Shown here: positions 8,182-22,501 of the stretch, in pieces | Layout of the letters: each line of letters begins with the position of its first letter | Numbering within the stretch: the stretch's first letter is position 1 | NCBI GenBank assembly: GCA_963713805.1 | Contig: CAVQNF010000002.1 | Coordinates: forward strand, 1-64,000 | DNA from: an uncultured Alphaproteobacteria bacterium | GTDB taxonomy: Bacteria > Pseudomonadota > Alphaproteobacteria > Rhizobiales > Beijerinckiaceae | DNA: 64,000 bases | Direction: 5' to 3' | Notes under the pieces: generated by a model | Told to the model about the DNA's origin: nothing | The model's input: the letters and a program-made list of their open reading frames with translations, nothing else | Databases searched by the model: none | Made by a program: the position numbers and the translations under genes

Positions 8182-8273
8182 GCGACGTGCCGCGGGCAGC
8201 CTGCCAAAGTCACTCAACCGTCATGCGACTCACCTAACGCCGATCGAACGCAAACGAGGATGCGGGAGGTCCG

Positions 8274-9542
8274 GTGACGCAATCGGCAAGGGCTCTTCGA
8301 CGCGCAACTGCCGTCAACCTGAACAGTGCGGTTCACCGCAGCGGGGCGTTTTCGCGCGCCGGTCTTTTGGAACGCCTCTTCACCTTCGCGTTCCGCGGTC
8401 TCGTCTATCCTCAGATCTGGGAGGACCCGGTCGTCGACATGGCGGCGCTCGACATGCGCCCCGACGATCATCTGGTCGCGATCGCGTCGGGTAGCTGCAA
8501 CATCCTGTCGTATCTCACGGCGAACCCTGCCCGCATCAGCGCCGTCGACCTCAACGGCGCGCATGTCGCGCTCGGTCGATTGAAGCTCGCGGCGTTGCGC
8601 CATCTGCCCGATTACGAGTCGTTTTTGCGCTTCTTCGGCACCGCCCGATCGCGCGACAATGTGGCCGCCTATGATACCCGCATCAAGCCGCATCTCGATT
8701 CCGTCTCGCGCGCCTATTGGGAAGCGCGCGCGGCTGAATGGCCGGCGGCGCATCACGGCCTTCACGGATAATTTCTACCGCCATGGTCTTTTGGGAAATT
8801 TCATCGGCGCGGGGCATCTCCTGGCGCGCCTCTACGGTTGCGACCCCGGGCGCGGTGCTCGAAGCCGACGGGCTGGCGCAGCAACGCATCCTCTACGAAC
8901 GGCACATGGCGCCGATCTTCGACAAGGCCTTCCTGCGCTGGCTGATCCGGCAGCCCGCCTCGCTCTACGGGCTCGGCATCCCGCCCTCGCAATATCGCAG
9001 CCTGTCGCGGGACCTTCCCGACGGCATCGCGGCCGTGCTTGCGCCAACGGCTCGAGAGGCTCGCCTGCGGCTTCGACATCAAGACCAATTACTTCGCCTG
9101 GCAAGCCTTCGGGCGCCGCTATGCGACGACCGGCGACGCAGCGCTGCCGCCCTATCTGCAGCGGCAGCATTTCGACACCCTGCGCGCGCGCGCCGAGCGC
9201 GTGCGTCTCCAACAGGCTTCGCTGACCGAGATTTCTCGCGCAAAGCCCGGCCGAGAGCGTCGACTGCTATGTCCTCCTCGACGCGCAGGACTGGATGAAC
9301 GACGAGGACCTCACCGCGCTTTGGACCGAGATCACGCGCACCGCCCGCCCGGGCGCCCGCGTGATCTTCCGAACCGCGGCCGACGAGAGGCTGCTGCCGG
9401 GACGGCTGCCGGCCGCATCTCCTCGCGGCTTGGAGCTATGACCACGCGCGTTCGCGCGAGCTCGGGCGAACGCGATCGCTCCTCGATCTACGGCGCCTTC
9501 CATCTCTACCGGCTGGGGAAGGTTACGGTGACAGTGCCTTAA
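8274..9542 (+). pseudogene. btaA: Betaine-lipid synthase BtaA (DUF3419), multiply frameshifted
   Basis: BtaA-like segments are spread over at least 4 frames: LERLFTFAFRGLVYPQIWEDP...IASGSCNILSYL...AVDLN; RITAFTDNFYRHGLLGNFIGAGHLLARLYGCDP; ILYERHMAPIFDKAFLRWL..SLYGLGIPPSQY; RLACGFDIKTNYFAWQAFGRRY; VLLDAQDWMNDEDLTALWTEITRTARPGARVIFRTAA; DRSSIYGAFHLYRLG. Confidence 0.7.
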
Positions 9543-9626
9543 TTCCGTGTCACCCATAGGCGAAGGAAGTGCCTGGAATTAAGTGCACTGTCACCGAAAT
9601 TGCGGACGGGCGAATCCGGCGCCTTG

Positions 9627-10257
9627 ATGGATCGCATCTATCGTCACCAGCGCCATATCTATGATGCGAGCCGCAAGTTCTACCTGCTCGGCCGTGACAG
9701 CTTGATCGCCGGCTCTCGAGCCGCCCGAAGGCGCGAGCGTGCTCGAGATCGGCTGCGGCACCGGGCGCAACCTCATCAAGCTCGCGAGATTCTATCCCGG
9801 CGCTCTCTGCCATGGGCTGGATATATCCGCCGCGATGCTCGACACGGCGCGCCAGGCAACGATGCGCGCCGGCCTTTGCGACCGCATCTTGCTCGCGCAA
9901 GCCGATGCGGCATGTTTCGATCCCGATGGCGCTCTTCGGGCGCGCGAGCTTCGATCGCATCGTCATATCCTACGCGCTCTCGATGATCCCGCCCTGGCGC
10001 GAGGCGCTGGCGGGCGCGGTCGCCCGCCTCTCGCCCGGCGGTTCGCTCCACATCGTCGATTTCGGCGATCAGGCAGGCTTGCCGGCCCCGTTCCGCTTCG
10101 CGCTCGTCGCTGGCTCGCGCTCTTCCACGTGACGCCGCGCCGGACGCTTGCGGCCGAGCTCGCCGAGCTCGCGCGATCGAAGGGCCTCGGCTGGCGCTCG
10201 GTGAGCCGGTTTCGCGGTTATGCGCTTTATGCGGTGGTCGAGCGGCCAGTGGCGTAA
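9627..10257 (+). pseudogene. btaB: SAM-dependent N-methyltransferase BtaB, 3 frameshifts
   Basis: MDRIYRHQRHIYDASRKFYLLGRDSLIAG, then (shift) SVLEIGCGTGRNLIKLARFYPG...ACFDPDGAL, then (shift) FGRASFDRIVISYALSMIPPWREALAGAVARLSPGGSLHIVDFGDQAG, then (shift) WLALFHVTPRR...VERPVA*. Confidence 0.7.
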
Positions 10258-12203
10258 CCCGAGACCGGCGTCGCCTCGCGGTTCCTACCTTCGGTCTCAT
10301 CGAAACGCAGCAAGCGTCCCGCATTGGCGAGCACCGCGAAGGTGCCGAGATTATGCAGCACCGCGGCGACGAGCGCCCCGTTCGGCCCGAGCGCCCCGCT
10401 GGCCGCGGCGACGATCACGGAAAGCGTCCAGCCGAGGCCGAGCGCGACATTGACGGCGAGCGTCGAGCGGCAGCGCCGGCTGAGCCGGATGCAGGTCGGC
10501 ACCCGCCGCAGGTCGTCGGTGACGAGCACGATGTCCGCCGAGGCCGCCGCGATGTCGGTGCCCTGGGCGCCGAGCGCCATGCCCACCGCGCCGGCCTTGA
10601 GCGCGAGCGAATCGTTGATGCCGTCCCCGATCACCAGCGGACGGTTGCCCGCGCGAGATCTCGGCGAGAACGCGCGCCAGCTTGTCCTCGGGAAGCGCCT
10701 GCGCCTGGACATCGCCGATGCCGATGAGCGCGGCGACGCGATGCGCCACCGGCTCGCGATCGCCGGTGAGCAGGAGCTGGCGCGTCGACGCCGAGCGCGG
10801 CGAGCTCGGCGCAACGCCGAGGCCGCTTCAGGTCGCGGCTCGTCGGCGAGCAGGATCCAGCCGAGAAAGCGGCCTCCGAGCGCCACGCCGACCACCGGCC
10901 CGTCATGGGCGGGCGGCGCGGGAAAGGCGATGCCGAGCTCCGTCAAAAGTTGCGCCCGGCCGAGCGCCGCCTGGCGCCCATCGTCGAGCCCCGTCACGCC
11001 GAGACCATGCCGCTCGCGAAGCTCGCCGATGGGGCGGCGTCGGTCCGGCGAGACGGCGCCGGCAAGCGCGCGGCTCACCGGATGGGTGCTCGCCGCGCCG
11101 AGGCTGGCGGCGACCGTCATAAGCTCATCCGGCGAGGCTCCCGGCGCGGGCTCGCTCGCCACGACATGGAGACGGCCGAGCGTCAACGTGCCCGTCTTGT
11201 CGAAGATCGCCGAGGTGACGTCGGCAAGCTGCTCGAGAAAGCCCACGCCTTTGATGAGGATGCCGTGGCGCGCCGCCACCGCCACCGCCGCGACGGCGGT
11301 CGCGGGCGCGGCGAGCACGAGGGCGCAAGGGCAGGAGGCGACGAGCACGGCGAGCATCGCGTCGGTGTTGCCGGTCGCGAACCAGGTACCCGCCGAAAGG
11401 AGAAGCACGAACACGATGTAGCGGCCCGCGTAACGCTCGAGGAGGCGCGTCACCGGGGGCTTCGAGCGTTCGGCGGTCTGCATGAGCGCCACCACGCGCC
11501 CGAGCGTCGTGTCTTCGCCGGTACGCGTCACTTCGACGACGAGGCGGCCTTGCAAGTTGATGCTTCCGGCGAAGACGTTGCCGCCGGCTTCGACTTCGAC
11601 CGGCACTGATTCTCCCGTGATCGAGGCGAGATCGACGGAGGAATTCCCCTCCCGAACGATGCCGTCGGTCGGCACGCGATCGCCCGCCCATAGCTCGACG
11701 CGGTCGCCCGGGCGCAGATCCTCGGCGCCGACCTCCTCGAGCGCACCGTCCCTGGCGCGCCGGCGCGCCCCCACATGGGTCAACCGGTTCAGCGAGCGGA
11801 TCGCTTCTTGCGAACCGATGAGGCTTCTTTCCTCGAGCACATGGCCGATGATCATCACGATCGGCAGGATCGCCGCCGTCATCAGCTCTCCCGTGGCCCA
11901 GGCTGCCGCGAGCGCCATGGCGATCAGCTGATCCGTCACGCCATGCAGGCTCGGATGGCGCAGGCTGTGCCAGGCGGCGCTCAGGACCGGGACGGCCACG
12001 AGCGCCGCCGCGAGCCCCGCGACCAGGTTGGCGAGCGCGCTCTCGTCGGGGAACATTGCCTCCCAAAAAAGGGCGACGAGAAGAAGTCCACCCGCCAAAA
12101 GAGCGAGCGCGAGGCGCATCCCGAGCGACCATCGCTCGGCCCGGCTGAGAATGCTCTCCGCCGCGACGCTTTCCGGCATCGGCGCGAGGGTGGAGACGCT
12201 CAT
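10227..12203 (-). pseudogene. P1B-type (heavy-metal) P-type ATPase with no N-terminal HMA domain; at least 3 clustered frameshifts around 10.63-10.80 kb
   Basis: TGES, CPC and DKTGTLT motifs lie in the main frame. In the P-domain the main frame becomes R/S-rich junk, while the homologous sequence (AELAALGVD / QLLLTGDREPVAHRVAALIGIGDVQAQALPEDKLARVLAEISRGQ) sits in two other frames before returning to the main frame at RPLVIGDGINDSLALKAG. Confidence 0.7.
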
Positions 12204-13160
12204 TGCTCGGCTCCCGGAATGACGAGGCGCGTCGCATTGTGCGGGTCGACCGCGGTGACCTGGCCGACCTTCTTCAGGATCGAGCCGATACGCTCGTTGA
12301 ACACTTGCGTCAGCAGGGCCTCGCGCGAGGAGGTCTTCATCTCCTCGGCAAGCGCCGCGACTTCCGCCGTCTGGCTCGTGGCCTGGCTCACCCGCTCGGC
12401 GGCGGCCGCCTTCGCGCCCACGATGATCCGGTCATGGTGCTGGTTTGCGTCCTGACCCTTGCGCTCGGCGAAAGTGCGGGCCTCCGCGACGCGCTGATCG
12501 GCGCTTTGGATCGAGGTCAGCACATCCTCATAGGCTCGCTCCGCCCGCGAGCGCAGCGCGGCCGAGAGATCGACGCGGCTGATCTCGACGCCGAGGCCCT
12601 GCGTTTCGGTGTGCGAGCTCCGAAAGTCGCCGATTCATGGACGCCACCAGGTCAAGATGGAGCTGCTGGCGCTTGCCTGCCGCAAGGCTCGCCTCATCGG
12701 CCGGCCGCTCCGGCCGCGCCACCATGATGTCGTCGAGCTCGCGCGAGGCGACCAGCGACAGCGCGGAGGTTTCGTAGATGCGAAAGAGGGCTGGCTCCAC
12801 ATGGGTCGCGGAGAGCACGAAGGCCTCCGGATCGGTGATCTGGTAGTAGATATGCGCATCGAGATGCACCACGCCTCCATCTCCCGTGAGGAAGAAGTCG
12901 CCATTCGAGCGTGCGGCCGCGTCGTTTCTGAGGCCGAGGTAGTTGTTCTCGGGCGGGCGCGGGTCATTGGCGCTGCCGAGCCTGATCTGCGCGTCGCGCG
13001 CCGGGATGATCACGACCTGCTCGATCGGATGCGGCCAGGCGAGGAGGAGGCCCGCGTCCCTCACCCGGTTGAACTCGCCGAAACGGAGCACCACGGCGCG
13101 GCTCTGCGCCGGTATCTGACGGATGTTGCTCACCGACCAGAGCACGGCGAGAACGAGCAT
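12200..13160 (-). pseudogene. SPFH/band-7 protein, HflK-like, frameshift at about 12.55-12.6 kb
   Basis: N-terminal VVLRFGEFNRVRDAGLLLAWPHPIEQVVIIPARDAQI (SPFH). The C-terminus continues in another frame: ...ALLTQVFNERIGSILKKVGQVTAVDPHNATRLVIPGAEQ*. Confidence 0.6.
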
Positions 13161-13256
13161 GCCGAGGAAGACGAGGCGAAAGACGATCTGCAGGGATTGC
13201 GCCCAGGCGCCTTTCGGCTCGGGAGCTGCGATCGATGTGCGGAGCGTCGGGCGCGG

Positions 13257-14271
13257 TCATTGCGGGGGAGCCGGATTGAGCGACCAGCCTTGCGTCTGCG
13301 GCCCGTCGATCAGCACGCGGAAGGGCGCGGCGTCGGTGCGCAGGAAGATGCGCGTATTGGGGTTCGAGATGCGGTCGAGCGTGTCGAGCGAGCGCAAGAG
13401 CGTATAAAGCTTCGGATCGGTATTGAAGGCCTTGCTGTAGATGCCCGCGGCTTCCTCCCTGGACTTGGCTTCGATGCCGACCGCCTCCGCGCTCGCATTG
13501 GCGAGGAGGATGCGCGCGTCGCGCTCGGCGTCGGAGGTGATCTCGGCGGCCTTGCGCTGGCCTTCCGCCATTTGCGCGGCAGCCGCCGTCATCCGCTCCG
13601 CCGCCATGCGCGACACGGTGGCGTCGAGCGGACGGGTCGGAAGCGTCGAGCCGCTCGATGCCGAGCTGCTGGACGCTGATGCCGTAGGTATCGAGGAGTT
13701 GCTTGTCGAGCTGCGCCGCGAGCCGGTCCTCGAGCGCGGCGATCTCGACGCGGCCGGGATCCGTGTTCACGAGGCTCGCGAGCTCGAAGCTCGACACGGT
13801 GGTCTCGAGCGCCGAGCCGAGGAAGGTGCGGATCTGGCTCGCCGCTTCGTTCGGCTGGTTGCGCACGGCGCGCAGATATTGGCGCACATGGTCGGGATCC
13901 GCCTCCACGCGCCAGGCGACATAGGCCTCGACCAGAATGCGCAAGCCGTCCTTGGTGCCCACGTCCTGAAGCCCGCTCGAGGTCGTCTTGAGGCGAAGGT
14001 CGACGGGCAGGACGGTCTCGAAGGGCGGCGGCAGCTTCCATCTCAGCCCCGGCTCGATCAACACGCGCACCGGATCGCCGAAGCGGCTGACGACGAGCGC
14101 ATCGCCCGCCGTCACCAGCACCGACGAGGCGGCAAGAAGCGCCGCCACGCCGACGAGGCCGGCGATCGCGAAGCGCGCGGCCGAGGCGAAGGGCCTCGAT
14201 CCCGCGGGGCTCTCCTCGTCATGGTGGTGGTGATGATGCCCAGCCCCGTGGAGATGGTGATGATGCGTCAT
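13257..14271 (-). pseudogene. SPFH/band-7 protein, HflC-like, with a His-rich N-terminus; frameshift at about 13.65 kb
   Basis: MTHHHHLHGAGHHHHHHDEE..., then a TM segment, then SPFH (ALVVSRFGDPVRVLIEPGLRWKLP...). After LGIERL the homology moves to another frame (TLPTRPLDATVSRMAAERM...KAFNTDPKLYTLLRSLDTLDRI...). ATGA overlap with the upstream gene. Confidence 0.6.
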
Positions 14272-16136
14272 TTGTTCGGCTCCTTGTCGCCGATGTCCTC
14301 GTCCGGAACGGGGGGCGCGAGCGTGCGGAAGCTGCGCATGTCGATGATGGTCTCGCCGCCAGACCCGGCGATGCGGTGGTCGAGAAGCGTGATCGGCGCG
14401 GAAGCGAAGTCGCGCGTGATCGCGGAAAGATAGCGCTCGAAGAGATAGGGCGATCCCGCCGCGACGAAGGCACGCTCATCGGTCGCGAAGCGCAGGGCAT
14501 CGGATTGCGCGAGCGTGACGCGCTCGACCGCGGCGGCATTTGCGCTCGCGAGCTTCTCGGTCGCGCTTCGCCCCGCCTCGCTCAGCGACGTTATGGCGCG
14601 CCGCCGCGCCTCGGAGATCATGGCCTCCGACCTGATGCGCGCCGCCTGGACCTCATGATAGCTGTCGGCGGCCTTGGCCGGGGGATGGATCGCCTCGACG
14701 ATCACGGCGACGAGCTCGATCCCCGTGTCGGCGCGGTCGAGCGCCGTCTGAAGATCGTGGCGCAACTCTTCGGCCACGCCCTCACGCTTCTCGCCCAAGG
14801 CGCCGAGAAGCGTGCGCGTCGAGAAATAGCGGGCCAGCAGGCGGCCGGCGAAGGCGCGCAGAAAAGCTTGCGGGTCGCGCGCCCGATAGGCGCTCGCGAG
14901 CGCCGCCTCGTCGCTCAACCCGACACGCCAGATGAGCTCGACATCGACATCGACGACCTGAAAGGCGGAGCGGCCCGAAGCATCGCTCGCGATGAGATAG
15001 CTCGTCTCGGTGGGATGGCTTTGATCCCAGAGGCGGTCGGCGCCAGAAGGCGCCGCGTCCTCGACGCCGACCGCTTCCGCGCCCGCCATCCCCGCCTGGG
15101 CGTCGGGAGCGCCGAGCGACAAGGCGTGAACTTCGCCGAAATCGACGCGGCGGACGATGCCCAAGGGCCAGGGCAAGCCGATATGCAACCCCGGCTGCAA
15201 GACCGCGACGGGGCGCCCGAGACGCTCGTAAATGCCGCGCTGATCGGCGGCGAGAAGCGTCACGCCGGAAATTCCCCAGGCGAAGAGCAAAAGCAGGAGC
15301 GCCACCGGCATGATCGCGGATCGCACGAATCCGAGTGCCCAGCTCCGGGACAGATCGATGCCGATCTGATCTTGCAGCGACTGACGCCAGGCGCCTTGCG
15401 AGACAAGCTCGGGCGTGAGCAAACCCGCGGCCGCGCTCGAGACGCAGCCGAGCGCGCGCGTCGGGCCGGACGCCGGTTGAAAGAAGACCGCGAGCGAGCG
15501 CGCGGCAAGCTCCAGGGACACGAGGAACAGGAAAAGCCGCAGGATCGGCTCGACGAAACCCGCGAGGAGGAACCCATACCCCTCCATCAATGCGAGCACG
15601 GCTTCGATCGTGAAAGTCAGGAGGGCGAGGCGCAAGAGCCGCCGCAGCGCCAAAGCTTCCGGGAGCCGCAAGCCGATGGAGCCCGCATAGGCGCGCTCGG
15701 CGAGAAGCAGCGGAAAAGCCGCGGCCAGAAGAATGGCGCCGCGCATGAAGAGCATGCGGCTCAAAAGCCCGACCTCCGCCGGCACGGGCCAGCGCCAGGT
15801 CAGCGCCAGGATCGCCAAAGCCGCGCCCGCGAGCATCACCAGCGCTTGCGCGGTCCCCGCGAGGGAGGCTCGGAGATCGGCTGGCAGCGGACCGAAGGGC
15901 ACGATCCGGGCGAGCGGCGCCCGAAGCCATGTTGGGAGAAGGCCGCGCGCCGCCCGCGTCCTCGAAGCCTCGGCAGACGCAGGCGGGCCTTGCTCGCGCA
16001 AGGCCGAGGAACGCGCCCCGGCGACGAGCGCGCAGGCGATGAAGGCGCCCGACACGAGGGCGAGCGACGCGCCGGCCAAGCGCAGGAAGGATTGATCATA
16101 GGCGTATCTTGCAAGCAGCCCGCCCGTGGCGCGCAA
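14268..16136 (-). CDS. Large polytopic membrane protein with a C-terminal SPFH/band-7 domain
   Basis: Uninterrupted 622-aa ORF with an N-terminal multi-TM region and an SPFH-like core (GIYERLGRPVAVLQPGLHIGLPWPLGIVRRVDFGEVHALSLG). It is the first of three tandem SPFH genes upstream of the P-type ATPase. Confidence 0.55.
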   Translation of the reverse strand: MRATGGLLARYAYDQSFLRLAGASLALVSGAFIACALVAGARSSALREQGPPASAEASRTRAARGLLPTWLRAPLARIVPFGPLPADLRASLAGTAQALVMLAGAALAILALTWRWPVPAEVGLLSRMLFMRGAILLAAAFPLLLAERAYAGSIGLRLPEALALRRLLRLALLTFTIEAVLALMEGYGFLLAGFVEPILRLFLFLVSLELAARSLAVFFQPASGPTRALGCVSSAAAGLLTPELVSQGAWRQSLQDQIGIDLSRSWALGFVRSAIMPVALLLLLFAWGISGVTLLAADQRGIYERLGRPVAVLQPGLHIGLPWPLGIVRRVDFGEVHALSLGAPDAQAGMAGAEAVGVEDAAPSGADRLWDQSHPTETSYLIASDASGRSAFQVVDVDVELIWRVGLSDEAALASAYRARDPQAFLRAFAGRLLARYFSTRTLLGALGEKREGVAEELRHDLQTALDRADTGIELVAVIVEAIHPPAKAADSYHEVQAARIRSEAMISEARRRAITSLSEAGRSATEKLASANAAAVERVTLAQSDALRFATDERAFVAAGSPYLFERYLSAITRDFASAPITLLDHRIAGSGGETIIDMRSFRTLAPPVPDEDIGDKEPNK

Positions 16137-16384
16137 GCCTTCCCCGAGCAGGAGAAGACAGGCGAGGAAGCTCGAAGAGCCGATGAGATCAGCAGGCGAC
16201 GGCCACGCGCGACCTCCGCGAAGGCCGCCTCGCGCGGCAGCTCCGTCGTTTCCAACGCCGTCCGTTGATCGAGCAAACAGGCACCTCGCCGCATCCGCGA
16301 TGGTCGGGCTCTTGCGGACGCCGGGGGGAAATTAGCAAAGCGGCGTGCCGAGCGCCATGCGGCGGAAAAACGGGCTCCGAGAAG

Positions 16385-16830
16385 AACTGGTTCCCCGCCT
16401 GCGCGGGGATGAGCGGGAGAGGTTTGGCCCCCCCGCTCAGGCCCGCAGCCTCACCCCCGCTCATTCCCGCAGCCTCACCCCGCTCATTCCCGCAGCCTCA
16501 CCCTCGCTCATTCCCGCGAAGGCGGGAATCCAGGCTCGTAGGGCAGCTCCGAGAACAGCTGGTTCCCCGCCTGCACGGGGATGAGCGGAGAGGTTTGAGC
16601 CCTCGCTCATTCCCGCAGCCCCACCCCCGCTCATTCCCGCGAAAGCGGGAATCCAGGCTCGTAGGGCAGCTCCGAGAACAGCTGGTTCCCCGCCTGCGCG
16701 GGGATGAGCGGAGAGGTTTGAGCCCTCGCTCATTCCGGCAGCCCCACCCCCGCTCATTCCCGCGAAAGCGGGAATCCAGGCTCGTAGGGCAGCTCCGAGA
16801 ACAGCTGGTTCCCCGCCTGCGCGGGGATGA
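16385..16830. repeat. Tandem array (about 123-bp period, about 3.5 units) of double-hairpin palindromic elements
   Basis: Recurring modules are ggttccccgc-ctgc-gcggggatgagcgg and gctcattcccgc-gaaa-gcgggaatccagg, separated by a ctcgtagggcagctccgagaacagctgg spacer and gctcattcccgcagcc(c/t)cacccc linkers. Direct repeats are visible at 16506, 16629 and 16752. Confidence 0.8.
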
Positions 16831-16891
16831 GCGGAGGGGTGAAGGCGCCGGCCCCCTCACCTCTCCCGCAGGGTCCCGCAGGGAGAGGTGA

Positions 16892-18910
16892 TCAGCGGCA
16901 GAGGTTCACGCGCGTGCGGCAGACCTCGATGAAGCTCGAGTTGAAGCTGATGAGCGAACCAAGCGGGTTGCCGTTCTCGTCGAGCGTCGGGGCGCTGGAG
17001 TTCTTCTTCATCGTCGATCCGCCCGAATTCCCGGCTTGCGAGCCGCTTGTATCGGAGACTTGCACGATGAGGCTCGCGAGCACCGGATCGATGAAGGAGA
17101 AGACCGGCGTTCCGTTGCCCTGATCCATGCTGAAGGGCACGGGCGGGAGCGAGTTGTTCGCCGCCGTGACGAGAAGCGTGCCGGGCACGAAGGTGATGTC
17201 GAAATTCGGCGAGCTCACGCCGCCGGCGAAGATCTTGAAGCTTCCCGGCGAGCCCGTGGGCGCGTTCGTCGTGAAGCTGAGCATGCCGGTAAGCGCGCTC
17301 GGCCCGAGCCCCCCGGGGAACGGCCCGAAGCTCGCGCTGAACACGGGCTCCGGCGTGCCGACCACCTGCGTTTCGTTGCTCGCCGTGATGGTGAGCGGCG
17401 CCGGCGTGATCGTGCCCGTCGCGTTGACGACGGTGAGCGTGTAATTCCCGCCGCCATTGCCGTCGTTCACCGTGAGCGGGCCGAGCGCCATGGCGCGGCT
17501 TCCCGCATTCGCCGAAGCGAAGCTCTCGGCGAGCCCGCTCACGCTGTCGGTCCCCTTGAGGCCCGACACTTGCGCGCTCACGCTCGAGCCCGTGGTGCCG
17601 TCGAACACCTTGTTGTCCGACACTGCGCTCACCGTGAGCTGCGCCTTGTCGATCGTGCCCGTGGCGTTGACGAAGGTGATGGCGTAATTCCCGCCGCCAT
17701 TGCCGTCGCTCACCAAACCCGACGCCGACAGCGTGCTGCCATTCTGGCCGAGCACATTCTTCGAGCCGAAGGCTTGCGTGTAGCTCGCCGTGTCGTCGAC
17801 GTTGTGGCCCGTGACGATCACGGTTCCACCTGCCGCTCCGCTCATCCCCGCGAAAGCGGGGATCGAGTTCTTCGAGCCATTCCCGGCCGAGCCTGGGTTC
17901 CCGCCTGCGCGGGAACGAGCGGAGGGGGTGCCGCCGCTCACGTCGATGCGGCCCGTCACCTTCGCGAGCTTCGTCGCCTTGATGGTGACGCGCCCGCCCG
18001 AGCCGTCGCGGTTGCTCGCCGAAATGCGGCCCGCTCGCGAAGACGCTGCCGCCCGCCGTGAGCCACACATGGCCGCCGCGCATCGCGCTGCCCGTCGCGC
18101 GAATCATGCCGGTGTGATTGCCGGCGAGCGCATAGACATTGCCGCCCGCGGCCTTGAGCTCGGCTTGCGCCGCCGCGATCGCGCCCTTGTTCCTCACATC
18201 GCCCTTGCCGTAGCGCACCGCCATGCGGCCGCCGCCGACCGACATGTCCTTGAGGAGCACCTCTTGGCCGGCGCCCAGGCCCACCGTCCCGTTCGGCGCG
18301 TTGATCGAGCCCGAATTCACCACCGAGCGCGCGATGAGGAAGACATCCCCGCCGGAGGACGAGATCGAGCCGAGGTTCTTCACCATCCCGTCGCTTCGCG
18401 CCCTTGCCCTCGAAGCGCAAGGTCGAGCCCGCCATGAAGTTCTGGTTCGAGATGTCGAGCGAGGAGGCGACGAAGGAGCCGCCCGTCGTGATGACGCCGC
18501 TCTTGCCGACCACCACGCCTTGCGGGTTCACGAGATAGACCGAGCCCGTGGCGCGCGAGCGTGCCCATGATCTGCGAGAGCGATGCCGCCGGTGACGCGA
18601 TCGAGCGTCGCGCCCATGCCGTTGTTGATCTTGACCGTGCCGCTCTTGCCGATCGAGAAGCTGTTGAAATCGATGATGCCGCGCTGGCTCGATTGCGTGA
18701 TCGTCTCGGTGAGGCCTTGCGTGCCGATCGAGCCCGTGCCTGCGACAAAATGCCCGCCTTGCGGGAGCATGTTCGCCGGGACGGCGACGGGCGAGCCCGC
18801 CTGCGCCGCCGAGGCCGCAGCAAGGAGTGAAGTGCTTGCGAGCGCCGTGCTCGCCGCGAGGCTTGCGAGGAAGCGCCGATGGGCACCACGTCGGGCCGTG
18901 CCGGGAGCCA
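16892..18910 (-). pseudogene. Filamentous-hemagglutinin/TpsA-like exoprotein (TPS secretion domain plus MBG-like repeats), frameshifted; no TpsB partner in the window
   Basis: Signal peptide MAPGTARRGAHRRFLASLAASTALASTSLLAAASAAQA. TPS domain LPQGGHFVAGTGSIGTQGLTETITQSSQRGIIDFNSFSIGKSGTVKINNGMGATLDRVTGG. The sequence continues in other frames (NPQGVVVGKSGVITTGGSFVASSLDISNQNF...; ...ATGSAMRGGHVWLTAGG). The C-terminal part has GNGGGNYxxTxVNATGTI...LT(I/V) repeats. Confidence 0.65.
17841..17930. repeat. One copy of the double-hairpin element inserted in frame inside the FHA-like coding sequence
   Basis: ccgctcatccccgcgaaagcggggatcgag...gggttcccgcctgcgcgggaacgagcgg. It is translated as ...GNPGSAGNGSKNSIPAFAGMSGAAGG... 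inside the ORF. Confidence 0.7.
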
Positions 18911-19280
18911 TGCGCCCCCGCTCGCTCTCGAACACGCCCGCCTCGCGGCAGGCCCCATCAGAATGACGAATGGACATAGTGCCCCTCATTGCGTCAGCAA
19001 GGCCGAAATCGGCCTTGAGGCTTTGCCTCATCAGATCGCTTATGAAACTAGCCTCAACTCTAACTTCGACGTGAGCACGTGGAAGATTGAGCGCCCGTGA
19101 CGTTCGTAAGGCACGCCGAGCACTCTCATACAGCCTCTATTCCCTTTAACACAGCCGGGCCCCACAAGATATCGTGATCGTTGCGGCCCATTTCCCTGTG
19201 CAATTGTCCGGCTTATCTACTACGGATAAATTTGTAAATGGCCGTTCACATGTACCAACTTTTGTTAGCGATGGCCAACA

Positions 19281-19352
19281 AGCCTGGATTCCCGCTTGCG
19301 CGGGAATGAGCGGAGGTGAGGCTGCGGGAATGAGCGGGGGTGAGGCGCGGAA
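19281..19352. repeat. Double-hairpin element fragments (inverted orientation relative to the 16.4-16.8 kb array) abutting the GIY-YIG start
   Basis: cctggattcccgcttgcgcgggaatgagcgg aggtgaggctgcgggaatgagcgggggtgagg is the reverse complement of motifs in the 16.4-16.8 kb array. Confidence 0.7.
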
Positions 19353-19640
19353 ATGAGCTTCTACGTCTATATTCTGGCGAGCCGACGCAACGGCACGCTC
19401 TATATCGGCATGACGGACGATCTCAATCGGCGGGTTTTCCAGCATCAGGAAGGAGTGTTCCCGGGATTCACCAAAAAATACGGGGTCAAAATTTTGGTCT
19501 GGTTCGAGCAGCATGAAACCCGCGAGAGCGCCTTTCGTCGAGAGCGCGCTTTGAAGAAATGGAATCGAGCCTGGAAGCTGGCGCTCATCGAGCGCTCCAA
19601 TCCGACTTGGCGTGATTTAGCCTTGGAACTTGAACCGTGA
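19353..19640 (+). CDS. GIY-YIG nuclease family protein (small, UvrC-N-like)
   Basis: MSFYVYILASRRNGTLYIGMTDDLNRRVFQHQEG...: the GIY-YIG core (YVYIL..GTLYIG..DL.RR...H). 95 aa. The ATG lies inside a repeat motif variant (gcgcggaaATGAGCttc). Confidence 0.85.
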   Translation: MSFYVYILASRRNGTLYIGMTDDLNRRVFQHQEGVFPGFTKKYGVKILVWFEQHETRESAFRRERALKKWNRAWKLALIERSNPTWRDLALELEP

Positions 19641-19666
19641 GCCGTCATCTCATACCTCTCCGCCGT

Positions 19667-19808
19667 CCCCGCTATGCGCTACATTTCCGCTCATCCCCGC
19701 AATGCACTACATTTCCGCTCATCCCCGCAATGCACTACATTTCCGCTCATCCCCGCAATGCACTACATTTCCGCTCATCCCCGCAATGCACTACACATTT
19801 CCGCTCAT
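19667..19808. repeat. 28-bp direct tandem repeat, 5 copies (ccccgcaatgcactacatttccgctcat)
   Basis: Adjacent copies at 19667, 19695, 19723, 19751 and 19779 (the last carries a 2-bp insertion). No spacers, so not CRISPR. Confidence 0.8.
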
Positions 19809-19925
19809 CCCCGCGAAGGCGGGGATCCAGTTCTTGGAGCTGCCCTATAAGCCTGATTCCCGCTTGCGCGGGAATGAGCGGGGGTGAGGCTGCGGGAATG
19901 AGCGGGGTGAGGCTGCGGGCATGAT
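19801..19925. repeat. Complete double-hairpin element plus tail
   Basis: ccgctcat-ccccgc-gaag-gcgggg-atccag-ttcttggagctgccctataagcctg-attcccgc-ttgc-gcgggaat-gagcgg, then gggtgaggctgcgggaatgagcgg. Confidence 0.75.
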
Positions 19926-19945
19926 GGGTGGGCTCAAACCTCTCG

Positions 19946-20035
19946 GCTCATCCCCGCAATGCCCTACATTTCCGCTCGCCCCCGCAATGCACTACATTTC
20001 CGCTCGTCCCCGCAATGCGCTACATTTCCGCTCAT
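19946..20035. repeat. 28-bp tandem repeat, 3 degenerate copies
   Basis: ctcatccccgcaatgccctacatttccg / ctcgcccccgcaatgcactacatttccg / ctcgtccccgcaatgcgctacatttccg. Confidence 0.7.
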
Positions 20036-20145
20036 CCCCGCGAAGGCGGGGATCCAGTTCTTGGAGCTGCCTTATAAGCCTGGATTCCCGCTTGCGCGGG
20101 AATGAGCGGGGGTGAGGTTGCGGGAATAAGCTGGGGCGAGGCTGC
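20028..20145. repeat. Second complete double-hairpin element plus tail
   Basis: Near-identical to 19801..19925 (ccgctcatccccgcgaaggcggggatccagttcttggagctgccttataagcctggattcccgcttgcgcgggaatgagcgg...). Confidence 0.75.
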
Positions 20146-20177
20146 GGAATTCCGTAATTCTCCTAATTCAGAATGCG

Positions 20178-22445
20178 TCAGAAGCTCTTCGACAGCCCGG
20201 CGAGGATCGTGCGCCTTTGCCCGAATTGCGGCGCCGCGACCCCGATGCCGGTGCCGTTGCGAAGCTCGTATTTGCGGTCCGTGAGGTTGATCATGTCGAG
20301 GCGGGCCGTCATCTTGCCCATTCCGGGCGCCTCGAACTCATGCTTGATGCCGGCGTTGACCTGCACGTAATTCGGCTGGCGCTGGGTGTTGGCGAAGCCC
20401 GATCTCAGCCCCGAGCCGGAGATCAGATCGGTGGTGAGCAGCGTGTCGACCGAGCCGATAGGAGGCGCCGCCCGAGATCGTGAAGCGCTGGTCGTGATCG
20501 AGATAGACCCAATGGATTCGCGACGAAGGCGAGCTCGTCGGCGGCGAAGAAGAACTGGCTCGAGATGATGTTCTTTCCTTGCGCGCGCGAATAGGCGAAA
20601 TTTCCGTAGAGTGAAAGATTGTCGATCTGGTAGGAGGCCGTGACCTCCGTCCCGTAGACCTTCCCATGCTGATAATTGAAGGGCGCGAAGACGAGCGCCT
20701 GGCCGAATTGGCCTTCATCGATCAGATCATTGGCGCGTTTGTAATAGGCGTCGAGGCCGAGCTGGAAATCGGGTCCGAATTTCTGGATGACGCCGGCGTC
20801 GAAATAATTCGCGCGCTCGGGCTTCACGGGAGCTATCCGCGGTGACGCTCGGAGCCGCCGTCGTGTTGGCGAATTTGGAGATCGTCTCGGGTGCGATCAA
20901 TTCCAGGGGCGGGGGCGTGAAATAGCGCGCGTAGCCGAGATGGACGGTGGTGCCGTCGAGCGGCTTGTAGACGAGATTGACGCGTGGTGAGAGCTGGTTC
21001 TTGTCGATGAATTGGAAGCTCTCGTCGAAGCTCGCGCCGTAGTTGAGCGTCAGCTTGTCGGAGATCTTCCACTCGTCCTGCGCGTAGAGGCCCGCGAGAT
21101 AGCCGATCTTCCTGCTGTTGTCGGAGATGGCGAAGGGCTGATCGATCGGGTTCCCGTTCGCGTCGAGCGGCAGCACGGTCGACAGATTGCTCGAGCGCGC
21201 GCGTTCCACATCGGCGAAGAAGCCGGCGCGAAAGGTGTGCGACGGATCGATCTGGTAGCTCAGATCGCCTTGAAGGCCGTTGGCGAAATTCTCATGGCGC
21301 ACATTGGAGGCGACGCCATTGAACAGGACGATCGCCGACCGGATCGGGGAAGAAATGCGTCAAGGTGTATCGGCTGAAATAGGCGAGCTGCATGTTCAGG
21401 TCGCCGAGCGATTTCTGCAAGGCGAGGATGTTGAAATTCGAATTCCTCCAATTGCTGCTCGCGCAGGCCCGCCGAGTTGAAATCCGAAATGCCGAAGGCG
21501 GTGAAGGCGGGCATCTGCCCGGGATTGTTGGGAAGCCGGAATTGGCTCACCGCCGTTCCGGAGATGAAGCTCAAGCGCGTGCTCTCGTCGATGATGCCGG
21601 AAAGGTAGAGAAAGCCCCTGCCCTGCTCGGTGAAATCCTTCACCGGAACGAGCGAGTGGGTGGGATTTTCGATGCCGATGTTGTTCTGGAGGTAGCTTCC
21701 GGAAACGAAGTAGTCGAGCTTTCCGGTCGAGCCCCCATAAGAGAAGCTCGGCAGGAAGGTCTGGCGCTGCCCGCCGTAAATCGACACTTCGCCACCGGGC
21801 TCGAGCGTTCCGCTCTTCGTCTCGATGTCGACGACGCCGGCGGTTCGGTAGCCGTATTCGGCCGGCAGCGCTCCGGTGATCAGATCGATGCGGCGCGCGA
21901 AGCGGGTGTCGAACAATTGCGAGAAGCCGCTGATCGTCTCGGGGATGATGATGCCGTTGATCCGAAATTGCAGGTTCGCATGATCGCCGCGCACATGGAG
22001 CTGGCCGAAGGAGTCCTGGGCAACGCCGGGCGCCTGAAGCAAGGTCTGGCTGAGCGATGCATTGTTGCCGAGCGGCTGGGTATCGATCGCCTCGCGGTTG
22101 ATCTCGTAGCTCGAGGCGCCGACCGCGGTCGAGATCTGGTTGCGCGCCTGGTCGAGCCGTGCGGCCGTGACCGTGATGTCGAACCGGTCGCTTTGCCCGA
22201 CTTCGGTCACCACGCTTCTCGTCGGACCGGGCTGCACGGCCGGGCCGCTGGTCGCCGGCGCGGCGGGCTCCCCGGTGCCCGCTGTCGTCTGAGGCGGGGC
22301 GGTGCTCGCAGGGGCTTGAGCGAAGGTCTGGGCTTGAGCGAAGGAGGTGAAACGAAACCAAGGCCCAGGAGGAGACAGAGGAGGAGACAGAGGAAGAAAC
22401 GCCTGAAGGCAACGAAAAAAGCGAAAGGCACCGGGGACACTCCAT
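20178..22445 (-). pseudogene. TonB-dependent outer-membrane receptor, at least 6 frameshifts
   Basis: Plug and barrel segments are spread across frames (VTAARLDQARNQISTAVGASSYEINREAIDTQPLGN...; RHENFANGLQGDLSYQI...; ANYFDAGVIQKFGPDFQLGLDAYYK...). The C-terminal ...RRTILAGLSKSF* carries the TonB-box-end aromatic residue. Signal peptide FFLCLLLCLLLGLGFVS. Confidence 0.75.
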
Positions 22446-22450
22446 TAAAT

Positions 22451-22501
22451 GTTACAACGTAACACTACGGAAATTTTTTATTAATGCAATAACGTTGCAT
22501 T
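22451..22501. promoter_or_regulatory. Two palindromes in the AT-rich region upstream of the TonB-dependent receptor (candidate operator)
   Basis: gttacAACGTaac (22451-22463) and aatgcaaTAACGttgcatt (22483-22501), immediately 5' of the receptor start on the minus strand. Confidence 0.3.

Follow-up and report, generated by a model that had tools for sequence, protein, structure and literature searches.

An HMA-less P1B ATPase gene coupled to three SPFH genes in an alphaproteobacterial contig, a probable ortholog of the Pseudomonas aeruginosa hmtA locus

Gene content and reading frames

The window, as we call the whole 64-kb stretch of DNA analysed, carries on its minus strand four consecutive genes, in the order polytopic SPFH protein, His-tailed HflC-like protein, HflK-like protein and HMA-less P1B ATPase. 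The first of them, SPFH1 (PA2439-like; 14268..16294), codes for about 675 residues in intact relatives. The HflC-like gene (PA2438-like; 13257..14271; one TM helix; 337 residues in intact relatives) has its ORF start at 14271, opening with MTHHHHLHGAGHHHHHHDEE, and the histidine tract HHHHLHGAGHHHHHH, encoded at 14221..14265 on the same strand, forms residues 3-17 of its product. The HflK-like gene (PA2437-like; 12200..13260; 352 residues in contig L088, see below) and the gene for an HmtA-type P1B ATPase (PA2435-like; 10227..12203; 657 residues in relatives) complete the set, the CPC codons of the latter (residues 291-293) lying at 11325..11333. An earlier note on this DNA had listed three SPFH genes and an HMA-less metal ATPase on the minus strand, and each of these elements was found again. 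The tight junctions that it described, with an ATGA overlap at 14268-14271, were likewise confirmed; the remaining two, at 13257-13260 and 12200-12203, are also ATGA overlaps, through which the four genes are evidently coupled in translation, to judge from the sequence.

All four genes are damaged in the sequence as read. Comparison with L088, a 98.8%-identical contig in which all four are intact (675, 337, 352 and 657 residues), reveals a total of seven 1-bp indels. A deletion at around 16187 explains why the listed SPFH1 ORF begins at 16136; the correct start codon is the ATG at 16294, so that the earlier note was right about the presence of a polytopic SPFH gene but not about its length, which is around 675 residues rather than 622. 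The HflC-like gene is shifted out of frame by an insertion at around 13652, and the HflK-like gene has insertions at around 13227 and 12596. Three insertions specific to the window in the ATPase gene (10811, 10787 and 10657) jointly leave a 658-residue ORF open, with the segment containing the TGD motif out of frame.

Were they real, the seven frameshifts would leave the locus inactive, and the cluster would then be a set of pseudogenes without a function to explain. Their concentration within 6 kb, the sharing of those at around 13652 and 12596 with a second assembly (L001) and the insertion of some 4 kb of repeats and gene fragments upstream all speak for such decay. We nevertheless regard it as highly improbable, given the intact genes in L088. 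In L001 the three ATPase insertions are absent, and other indels, peculiar to that assembly, occur; the coding sequence is otherwise conserved, with few substitutions (125 per 9.8 kb); and the changes are single-base indels, mostly insertions, at about one per 500 bp, which affect unrelated neighbouring genes equally (around 20 per 9.8 kb, again mostly insertions). This equal density indicates sequence error rather than selective decay and, since a near-identical contig has the four genes intact, the frameshifts are probably assembly errors. Gene calls in this indel-ridden window consequently need correction.

The SPFH proteins and the ATPase

In a structure model, SPFH1 consists of an N-terminal membrane domain of about 345 residues, made up of six long helices and an anchor helix, followed by the SPFH domain and a coiled coil; Pfam places Band_7 at residues 298-513. 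The model matches the cage subunits of HflK/HflC, stomatin, prohibitin and erlin, and the HflC-like protein matches E. coli HflC (7vhp_G) with an e-value of 3e-20. An SPFH fold with coiled-coil cage architecture is therefore present, as seen in models of monomers only. The best structural matches are to the E. coli HflK/HflC-FtsH cage (PDB 7VHP, 7WI3, 9CZ2), with which the cluster shares the SPFH domain, the long coiled coil, the single N-terminal TM helix and the adjoining genes for HflC-like and HflK-like paralogs. However, none of the three proteins reaches the NCBIfam equivalog cut-offs for canonical HflK or HflC: SPFH1 and the HflK-like protein score 64 and 95 bits against TIGR01933 (cut-off 159) and the HflC-like protein 99 bits against TIGR01932 (cut-off 134). 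The cluster differs from the E. coli system also in its third, polytopic subunit, in the poly-His tail of the HflC-like subunit and in being coupled to a P1B pump rather than lying near ftsH, hfq or hflX.

No counterpart of the polytopic N-domain was found in HflK. In Foldseek comparisons it bears a weak resemblance to the CDF (SLC30/YiiP) fold, with TM-scores of about 0.3, while a model of the domain alone gave no significant match. There is no sequence signal for CDF in the domain, and the CDF metal-site residues DxxxD and HxxxD were not found there.

Relatives of the cluster are numerous, with at least 583 genome hits among Alpha- and Gammaproteobacteria, and 80 genome loci were fetched. 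Two features on which the earlier note had staked its reading, conservation of the arrangement in relatives and a His-rich N-terminus among orthologous HflC proteins, both proved to be widespread. The order SPFH1, HflC-like, HflK-like, ATPase is kept in every one of the 80 loci whose contig extends far enough, and a His-rich tail, with 6-19 His within the first 45 residues, is present in 117 of 120 HflC-like homologs (median 14 His across 79 genome loci). The tail is predicted to be cytoplasmic because it is N-terminal to the single TM helix and because of the homology to HflC.

The ATPase has SCPC and DKTGT motifs and, in Pfam, only the E1-E2_ATPase and Hydrolase domains. Pfam detects no HMA domain, nor is there a Cys among the first 90 residues, and the domain is absent from all 79 pumps of the clade. 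The signature reads (A/S)CPC in TM4 (C291 and P292 in 80/80, C293 in 78/80), N..W-T in TM5 (N585..W592-T593) and H-N-x-(S/G)-T in TM6 (H617-N618). Specific to the clade are the invariant H-N in TM6 and, close to the cytoplasmic face of the membrane, the residues H87 and H121. By these sequence criteria the pump represents a distinct, HMA-less P1B clade with a CPC and His-Asn signature. It clears the NCBIfam heavy-metal and Cd-family subfamily cut-offs, and its closest solved relatives are ZntA (P1B-2; 4UMV) and sCoaT (P1B-4; 7QBZ), at e-values of about 1e-69. Assignment to the ZntA-type P1B-2 exporters was rejected: the CPC is shared, but the TM5 Lys (NX7K), the TM6 DxG and the N-terminal HMA domain (CxxC) are missing. 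The same applies to the CoaT/CzcP-type P1B-4 group, where the TM6 His aligns with that of HEGST in sCoaT, but the pump has CPC rather than SPC and its HNx(S/G)T shares only His and Thr with HEGxT. Among the solved P1B structures matched by the pump none is described as that of an importer, all being named efflux or exporting proteins or simply metal-transporting.

Relationship to the hmtA locus and zinc context

The earlier note knew of no described system with this arrangement. It has in fact been described, as the hmtA locus of P. aeruginosa (PA2434-PA2439). The window proteins are 41, 63, 39 and 61% identical to the PA2439-, PA2438-, PA2437- and PA2435-like proteins of the P. aeruginosa-group locus L087, respectively, and within that locus none of the four aligned better to another gene. 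Sequence comparison hence indicates a one-to-one correspondence with the Pseudomonas genes. The L087 cluster is flanked by gcvT/sdaA-type genes and a gene for a LysR-family regulator. Common to both systems are the four proteins (39-63% identity), their order and their orientation, as well as the His-rich tail on the PA2438-like protein and an HMA-less pump with CPC. Unlike the hmtA locus, the window clade lacks the small PA2436-like gene and the DUF4946 (PA2434-like) gene, its pump is without a His-rich N-tail and its palindrome precedes an adjacent TonB receptor gene rather than standing directly ahead of the first SPFH gene; in most of the Pseudomonas species fetched, the hmtA locus is preceded by a Zur-type palindrome.

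PA2435 is HmtA (UniProt Q9I147), a reported Zn/Cu importer. Overexpression of HmtA raises cellular Zn and Cu; the case for import depends on such overexpression, and a review asks for its confirmation. Elsewhere HmtA is taken as an established Cu importer and used as a control (PMC11923076). In a znuA mutant, PA2435 and PA2437-PA2439 are raised 5.6- to 14-fold, and the Zur site is weak (PMC4542158), the PA2439 promoter is shifted by Zur in EMSA (PMC8531726), zinc depletion enriches the proteins of the locus (PMC11761036) and the zinc chelator NAC induces PA2437-PA2439 (PMC9431628). In one study hmtA mRNA was not repressed by zinc.

A Zur-box-like palindrome, GTTACAACGTAAC, is also found in the window (22451..22463; TGTTAC-GTT-GTAACA on the minus strand), as a single match in 64 kb where 0.01 would be expected. 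It lies just upstream of the start of a TonB-dependent receptor gene (20178..22431, minus strand), which is co-oriented with the cluster and spread over several frames. The palindrome is present at the same position ahead of the TonB receptor in five further loci (L001, L002, L003, L008 and L009). No box was found directly upstream of SPFH1 in the window, the palindrome being about 6 kb from the cluster, and some 4 kb of repeats and haemagglutinin-gene fragments separate the receptor gene from the cluster; in Rhizobiales bacterium GAS191 the TonB receptor gene is only 176 bp upstream of the SPFH1 gene. The box GTTAYNNNRTAAC occurs 73 times in the 1.67 Mb of fetched loci, and in 42 loci, whose labels are without exception Pseudomonas or close relatives, it is located 38-110 bp upstream of SPFH1. 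The exact box was not found in most of the non-Pseudomonas loci fetched. More than half of 86 loci have, at a distance of up to 10 kb, genes for Znu-type ABC transporters (ZnuA in 25), COG0523 proteins (23) or TonB receptors (10). An association of the cluster with Zur-type palindromes and zinc-uptake genes is hence apparent from gene context across many loci.

The palindromes, ZnuABC, COG0523 and TonB receptors, along with the published data, point to a response to zinc starvation. They give little support to the detoxification that the earlier note's framing of a heavy-metal pump suggests. The context points to zinc acquisition. The cluster is probably the Hyphomicrobiales ortholog of PA2439-PA2438-PA2437-(PA2436)-PA2435, a module of the zinc-limitation response.

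Possible roles of the SPFH proteins at the pump

For most bacterial SPFH assemblies client and purpose are unknown, and metal import by P1B ATPases is disputed. The locus joins both questions within a single operon whose genes are tightly linked and widely conserved, and whose response to zinc starvation is known from a pathogen that lends itself to experiments. That nearly every HflC-like protein has a His tail, that trio and pump are strictly linked, that the pump clade has its own CPC and His-Asn signature and that most Pseudomonas species fetched have Zur-type boxes turns what was a line in transcriptome tables into specific hypotheses open to testing.

The idea of a metal-handling SPFH platform, put forward in the earlier note, seems plausible. 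The HflC-like, HflK-like and polytopic subunits would assemble in the inner membrane as a ring of HflK/C type, their N-termini cytoplasmic and the pump in or at the ring. The ring of His tails, each with 10-17 His per subunit, could then act as a local collar binding Zn(II) or Cu(II) at the cytoplasmic mouth of the pump, where the tract might functionally stand in for an HMA domain. Should the pump import, as reported for HmtA, the tails would take the released ion and hand it on, for example to the COG0523 chaperones frequently encoded nearby; should it export, they would supply the pump. A more specific version, in which the trio is a dedicated cage around an HmtA-type pump, the collar both buffers Zn/Cu and hands it over at the cytoplasmic face and the polytopic subunit adds a CDF-like six-helix membrane domain that itself binds or conducts metal, is a tentative and rather doubtful proposal. 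If it is true, a bacterial SPFH microdomain would for the first time be tied to a defined transporter client and to a direct part in metal trafficking.

The trio might instead be a zinc-starvation-specific HflK/C set that regulates the zinc-dependent FtsH, or shields membrane proteins from it, with the pump merely co-expressed and the His tail serving as a zinc sensor for that regulation. The trio is homologous to HflK/HflC, FtsH is a zinc metalloprotease and the P. aeruginosa papers adopt this reading, treating the SPFH proteins only as FtsH modulators, by name (PMC11761036, PMC9431628). However, all three proteins fall under the equivalog cut-offs and the polytopic N-domain lacks an HflK counterpart. 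Stop and start codons overlap where the trio adjoins the pump gene, a trio without the pump was seen in none of 80 loci, and no ftsH, hfq or hflX was present among the called genes beside the cluster in loci with gene calls, all of which makes a purely FtsH-directed role unlikely.

There is similarly little likelihood, in our judgement, of a detoxification platform, the direction in which the earlier note's reading leans, with a conventional Zn/Cd/Cu exporter in an SPFH efflux microdomain and cytoplasmic His tails that would take the part of an HMA domain, gathering surplus metal and passing it to the pump, by analogy with the mycobacterial PacL-Ctp effluxosomes. In its favour are the names of the matched solved structures and the subfamily cut-offs described above, source annotations of the orthologs as Cd2+/Zn2+-exporting and the predicted position of the tails on an exporter's loading side. 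PacL1 is an earlier example of a membrane scaffold that carries a His-rich motif (PMC13460109). Yet the context is of uptake type, no MerR/ArsR/CzcRS-type gene was noticed beside the cluster among the few loci with called genes and the transmembrane signature is unlike that of ZntA. Furthermore, the P. aeruginosa genes rise, rather than fall, under zinc scarcity (PMC4542158, PMC11761036, PMC9431628), and HmtA overexpression increases cellular Zn and Cu. Like the SPFH trio, the PacL proteins, which are small membrane scaffolds, are encoded in operon with P1B ATPases; some have a His-rich metal-binding motif, and PacL clusters the pump in membrane domains (PMC13460109). Membership of that system was rejected, however, the window partners being Band_7/SPFH and not DUF1490/PacL proteins, so that the resemblance is functional only. 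PacL also binds the metal-binding domain of its pump, which the window pump lacks, and PacL-Ctp is induced by metal excess and serves efflux, in contrast to the zinc-starvation context here.

Finally, 19 of 79 pumps carry a short His-rich N-tail of their own, a finding that would fit with action of the HflC-like tail at that same face of the membrane, the cytoplasmic one. Uncorrected for phylogeny, His counts in the HflC-like and pump tails show a weak negative correlation (rho -0.25).

Gene content and sequence quality of the cluster

Four co-oriented genes lie on the minus strand, as seen both in the ORF listing and in a three-frame translation. They encode the polytopic SPFH protein SPFH1 (listed ORF 16136-14268), an HflC-like protein starting at 14271 with the N-terminus MTHHHHLHGAGHHHHHHDEE, an HflK-like protein, located between the HflC-like gene and the ATPase, and a P1B ATPase (12203-10227). 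Pfam assigns a Band_7 domain to each of the first three, and only E1-E2_ATPase and Hydrolase domains to the ATPase, in which the scan found no HMA domain; NCBIfam places this pump in the heavy-metal P1B subfamily. Scores against the NCBIfam HflK/HflC equivalogs all fall below the cut-off (64 bits against 159 for SPFH1, 99 against 134 for the HflC-like and 95 against 159 for the HflK-like protein), so that the three proteins are paralogs of the canonical pair. ATGA stop/start overlaps are found at all three gene junctions, and a generic promoter and terminator scan gave no signal exceeding the shuffled expectation. Since ORFs, domains and junctions agree, the earlier note was right to describe four minus-strand genes with tight junctions and an ATPase devoid of an HMA domain. 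Its 622-residue polytopic SPFH protein is indeed polytopic and of the SPFH type, but the length must be revised: the gene actually begins with the ATG at 16294, and its protein has 675 residues in P0269/L088, a JGI contig.

The reading frames in the window are not intact. The C-terminal halves of the HflC-like and HflK-like genes run on in different frames, and in the ATPase a stretch of around 60 residues that contains the TGD motif is read in the wrong frame within an ORF that stays open. The window was aligned with strain GAS191 (L002), to which it is around 80% identical at the nucleotide level, and with two contigs, one from ENA (L001, 98.3%) and the JGI contig (98.8%), revealing seven 1-bp indels in the cluster: one each in SPFH1 and the HflC-like gene, two in the HflK-like gene and three in the ATPase (positions 16187, 13652, 13227, 12596, 10811, 10787 and 10657). 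All four genes are intact in the JGI contig, at 675, 337, 352 and 657 residues. The ENA contig has two indels in common with the window and further ones of its own, and is without the three in the ATPase. True decay of the cluster into pseudogenes would explain the broken frames, but is improbable: the window differs from the JGI contig by around 20 single-base indels per 9.8 kb, with insertions predominating, and the adjacent methyltransferase, DUF3419 and TonB-receptor genes are affected too, so that the indels are probably assembly errors.

Compared with the 98.8%-identical contig, the window has a single-base indel roughly every 500 bp across 8200-22400, and most of these are again insertions; the same density probably holds over the entire window, and gene calls throughout it should be treated as unreliable. 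The indels break the TonB receptor into at least five frames and, at 8274-10257, also fragment the methyltransferase and DUF3419 genes (BtaB/BtaA-like).

The hmtA locus and its relatives

The window cluster is orthologous to the hmtA locus of Pseudomonas aeruginosa, where PA2439 (HflK family), PA2438 (HflC), PA2437 (HflC family) and PA2435 (HmtA) make up a single cluster. The arrangement, which the earlier note did not know as a described system, therefore matches a zinc-responsive cluster already on record. Loss of znuA raises expression of PA2435 and PA2437-PA2439 by 5.6- to 14-fold, and the Zur site of the cluster is weak (PMC4542158); EMSA shows a shift of the PA2439 promoter by Zur (PMC8531726), zinc depletion raises the levels of the hmtA-cluster proteins (PMC11761036) and the zinc chelator NAC induces PA2437-PA2439 (PMC9431628). 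A P. aeruginosa-group contig (L087), retrieved via the ATPase, encodes proteins of 665, 343, 346, 144, 660 and 181 residues, flanked by gcvT- and sdaA-type genes upstream and by a LysR-family regulator gene on the opposite strand downstream. The window's SPFH1, HflC-like, HflK-like and ATPase proteins are 41, 63, 39 and 61% identical to their positional counterparts there, and the PA2438-like protein has the N-terminus MSPGHSHSHGHPDHHHDHDHDHDHDHDHDH.

The two loci differ in that the small genes beside the pump, a PA2436-like gene of 144 residues (L087:8538-8972) and a PA2434-like DUF4946 gene of 181 residues (L087:10980-11525), are confined to the P. aeruginosa group, and the window's clade has neither. 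NCBIfam gave no match for either protein. P. delhiensis, P. citronellolis and Pseudomonas sp. 30_B likewise have a gap of around 600 bp where PA2436 would lie.

The arrangement is widely conserved. Scanning a single genome for each species gave at least 583 confirmed relatives, of which the best 80 loci were fetched; they come from Hyphomicrobiales, Xanthobacteraceae, Bradyrhizobium, Rhizomicrobium, Acetobacteraceae, Steroidobacteraceae, Marinomonas and many Pseudomonas species. By tblastn, the order SPFH1, HflC-like, HflK-like, ATPase is kept on one strand in every one of these 80 whose contig is long enough. The His-rich N-terminus is similarly general: among 2150 homologs of the repaired HflC-like protein (E ≤ 1e-10), 117 of the best 120 carry 6-19 His within the N-terminal 45 residues, and the three His-poor exceptions include truncated or mis-started calls. 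The two outcomes that the earlier note named as refuting it, an arrangement conserved in no relative and orthologous HflC proteins not characterised by a His-rich N-terminus, were thus not encountered. The locus and its regulation were already known in P. aeruginosa, and what is added here is a representative of an uncultured lineage of Hyphomicrobiales. In the literature searched, the SPFH trio appears in omics tables only, with no functional treatment, and PA2436-PA2439 are named in just seven of the papers listed. No account was found there of the generality of the His tail or of how the locus is conserved in two classes of Proteobacteria.

The pump has a distinct transmembrane signature. 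Across 80 pump-clade members, TM4 bears (A/S)CPC, TM5 bears N585, W592 and T593, and in TM6 H617-N618 and T621 are invariant, as are H87 and H121, close to the membrane's cytoplasmic face. Among solved structures, sCoaT (7QBZ) and ZntA (4UMV) are nearest to the pump. Unlike ZntA, the clade lacks the TM5 Lys and the TM6 DxG; it has CPC where the P1B-4 group has SPC, and its TM6 His aligns with the His of the sCoaT HEGST motif. No member has an HMA domain. An N-terminal His-rich stretch of the pump itself is present in 19 of 79 cases, among them the P. aeruginosa and P. putida groups and Marinomonas, and absent in 47, the window's included. A test for mutual compensation between the His tails of pump and HflC-like protein gave a weak correlation over the 79 loci (rho -0.25, uncorrected for phylogeny).

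Zinc-related neighbours and putative Zur boxes

Gene calls near the homologs suggest a link to zinc. ExbB/ExbD and a TonB receptor lie upstream of the cluster in GAS191, ZnuABC and two CobW/COG0523 genes adjoin it in Bradyrhizobium commune, and a TonB receptor and a Znu-type ABC transporter lie downstream in Metapseudomonas otitidis. Within 10 kb, a ZnuA-type gene occurs at 25 of 86 loci, COG0523 at 23 and a similar TonB receptor at 10.

An unbiased k-mer count of the regions upstream of SPFH1 recovered the palindrome cGTTATAtcGTAACg, the form of which fits the 17-bp Zur motif on record for P. aeruginosa. The pattern GTTAYNNNRTAAC has 73 matches in the 1.67 Mb of fetched loci. Forty-two lie 38-110 bp upstream of SPFH1, all at loci labelled Pseudomonas or close relatives, and most others are found 10-13 kb downstream from where SPFH1 begins; CobW- or ZnuA-type genes occur there in many of the same loci. 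Outside Pseudomonas, a scan for GTTAT-Nx-ATAAC gave few sites and only the relaxed palindrome GTTAYNNNRTAAC gave useful matches, though it is absent from most fetched Bradyrhizobium and Xanthobacteraceae loci. Five loci of the window's clade (L001, L002, L003, L008 and L009) have a single match directly upstream of the TonB receptor. The window likewise has exactly one (22451-22463, 0.01 expected). Since this palindrome is around 6 kb from the cluster, with some 4 kb of repeats and haemagglutinin-gene fragments between receptor and SPFH1, Zur control of the window cluster is a candidate only.

Two further loci show the near-palindrome GTTATACTATTAC: in a Xanthobacteraceae locus (L011, ~6601) it lies in the intergenic region between the SPFH cluster and a divergent znuA-like gene, and in an alphaproteobacterial MAG (L020) it precedes SPFH1 by around 780 bp, with a divergent znuA-like gene nearby. 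This suggests a variant Zur box in these lineages.

The insertion of around 4 kb between receptor and cluster corresponds to only 176 bp in GAS191. Part of it is occupied by arrays of 23-28 bp, 123-bp and 229-bp units of GCGGGAATGAGCGG-type repeats (16430-16840 and 19298-20147). Frameshifted fragments of a filamentous-haemagglutinin/TPS-type gene lie on the minus strand at 16857-19031, among them an ORF at 18528-19031 (minus strand) whose product starts with MRQSLKADFG and includes GIIDFNSFSIG; the counterpart in the JGI contig has a called MBG_2 domain, and the length of the gene varies among the window, L001 and L088. A plus-strand ORF of 95 residues amid the repeats (19353-19640, MSFYVYILASRRNGTLYIGMTDDL) resembles a small GIY-YIG-type protein.

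The SPFH proteins and a possible assembly with the pump

The locus combines strict linkage and translational coupling with a zinc-uptake context and a near-universal His tail. A lone TM helix, close to the N-terminus, is found in both the HflC-like and the HflK-like protein; from this single helix and the homology to HflC, the His tract is predicted to be cytoplasmic, on the same side as the pump N-terminus. We infer that the SPFH proteins may form an HflK/C-like ring housing or flanking the pump, in which the cytoplasmic poly-His collar would act as a local acceptor or donor of Zn/Cu. By analogy with PacL-Ctp effluxosomes, the cluster might instead be an efflux platform, which seems unlikely; published HmtA overexpression data indicate import, a direction for which a review asks for confirmation. 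Equally doubtful is that the trio are starvation-specific modulators of FtsH, the reading adopted in the P. aeruginosa papers (PMC11761036, PMC9431628). The mechanism can now be put to the test.

A structure model of SPFH1 (63-sequence alignment, mean pLDDT 75) has six long confident helices, an amphipathic segment and an anchor helix, followed by the SPFH domain and a coiled coil of around 90 residues; the C-terminal part resembles the cage subunits of HflK/HflC, stomatin, prohibitin, erlin and flotillin. The N-domain found no match in a profile search of PDB sequences or in the Pfam scan. Modelled alone, from a window fragment without helix 1 because of the frameshift, it gave no significant Foldseek match. 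With the SPFH1 model Foldseek also lists YiiP, ZnT1 and ZnT8, at TM-scores of around 0.3, and the CDF site residues were not found in the N-domain; the weak modelled likeness to CDF proteins may serve as a lead. Conserved buried charges are present in SPFH1 (E200-R201, E249, E262 and R266). The HflC-like protein has no conserved periplasmic His or Cys; one such His is found in the HflK-like protein and six in SPFH1.
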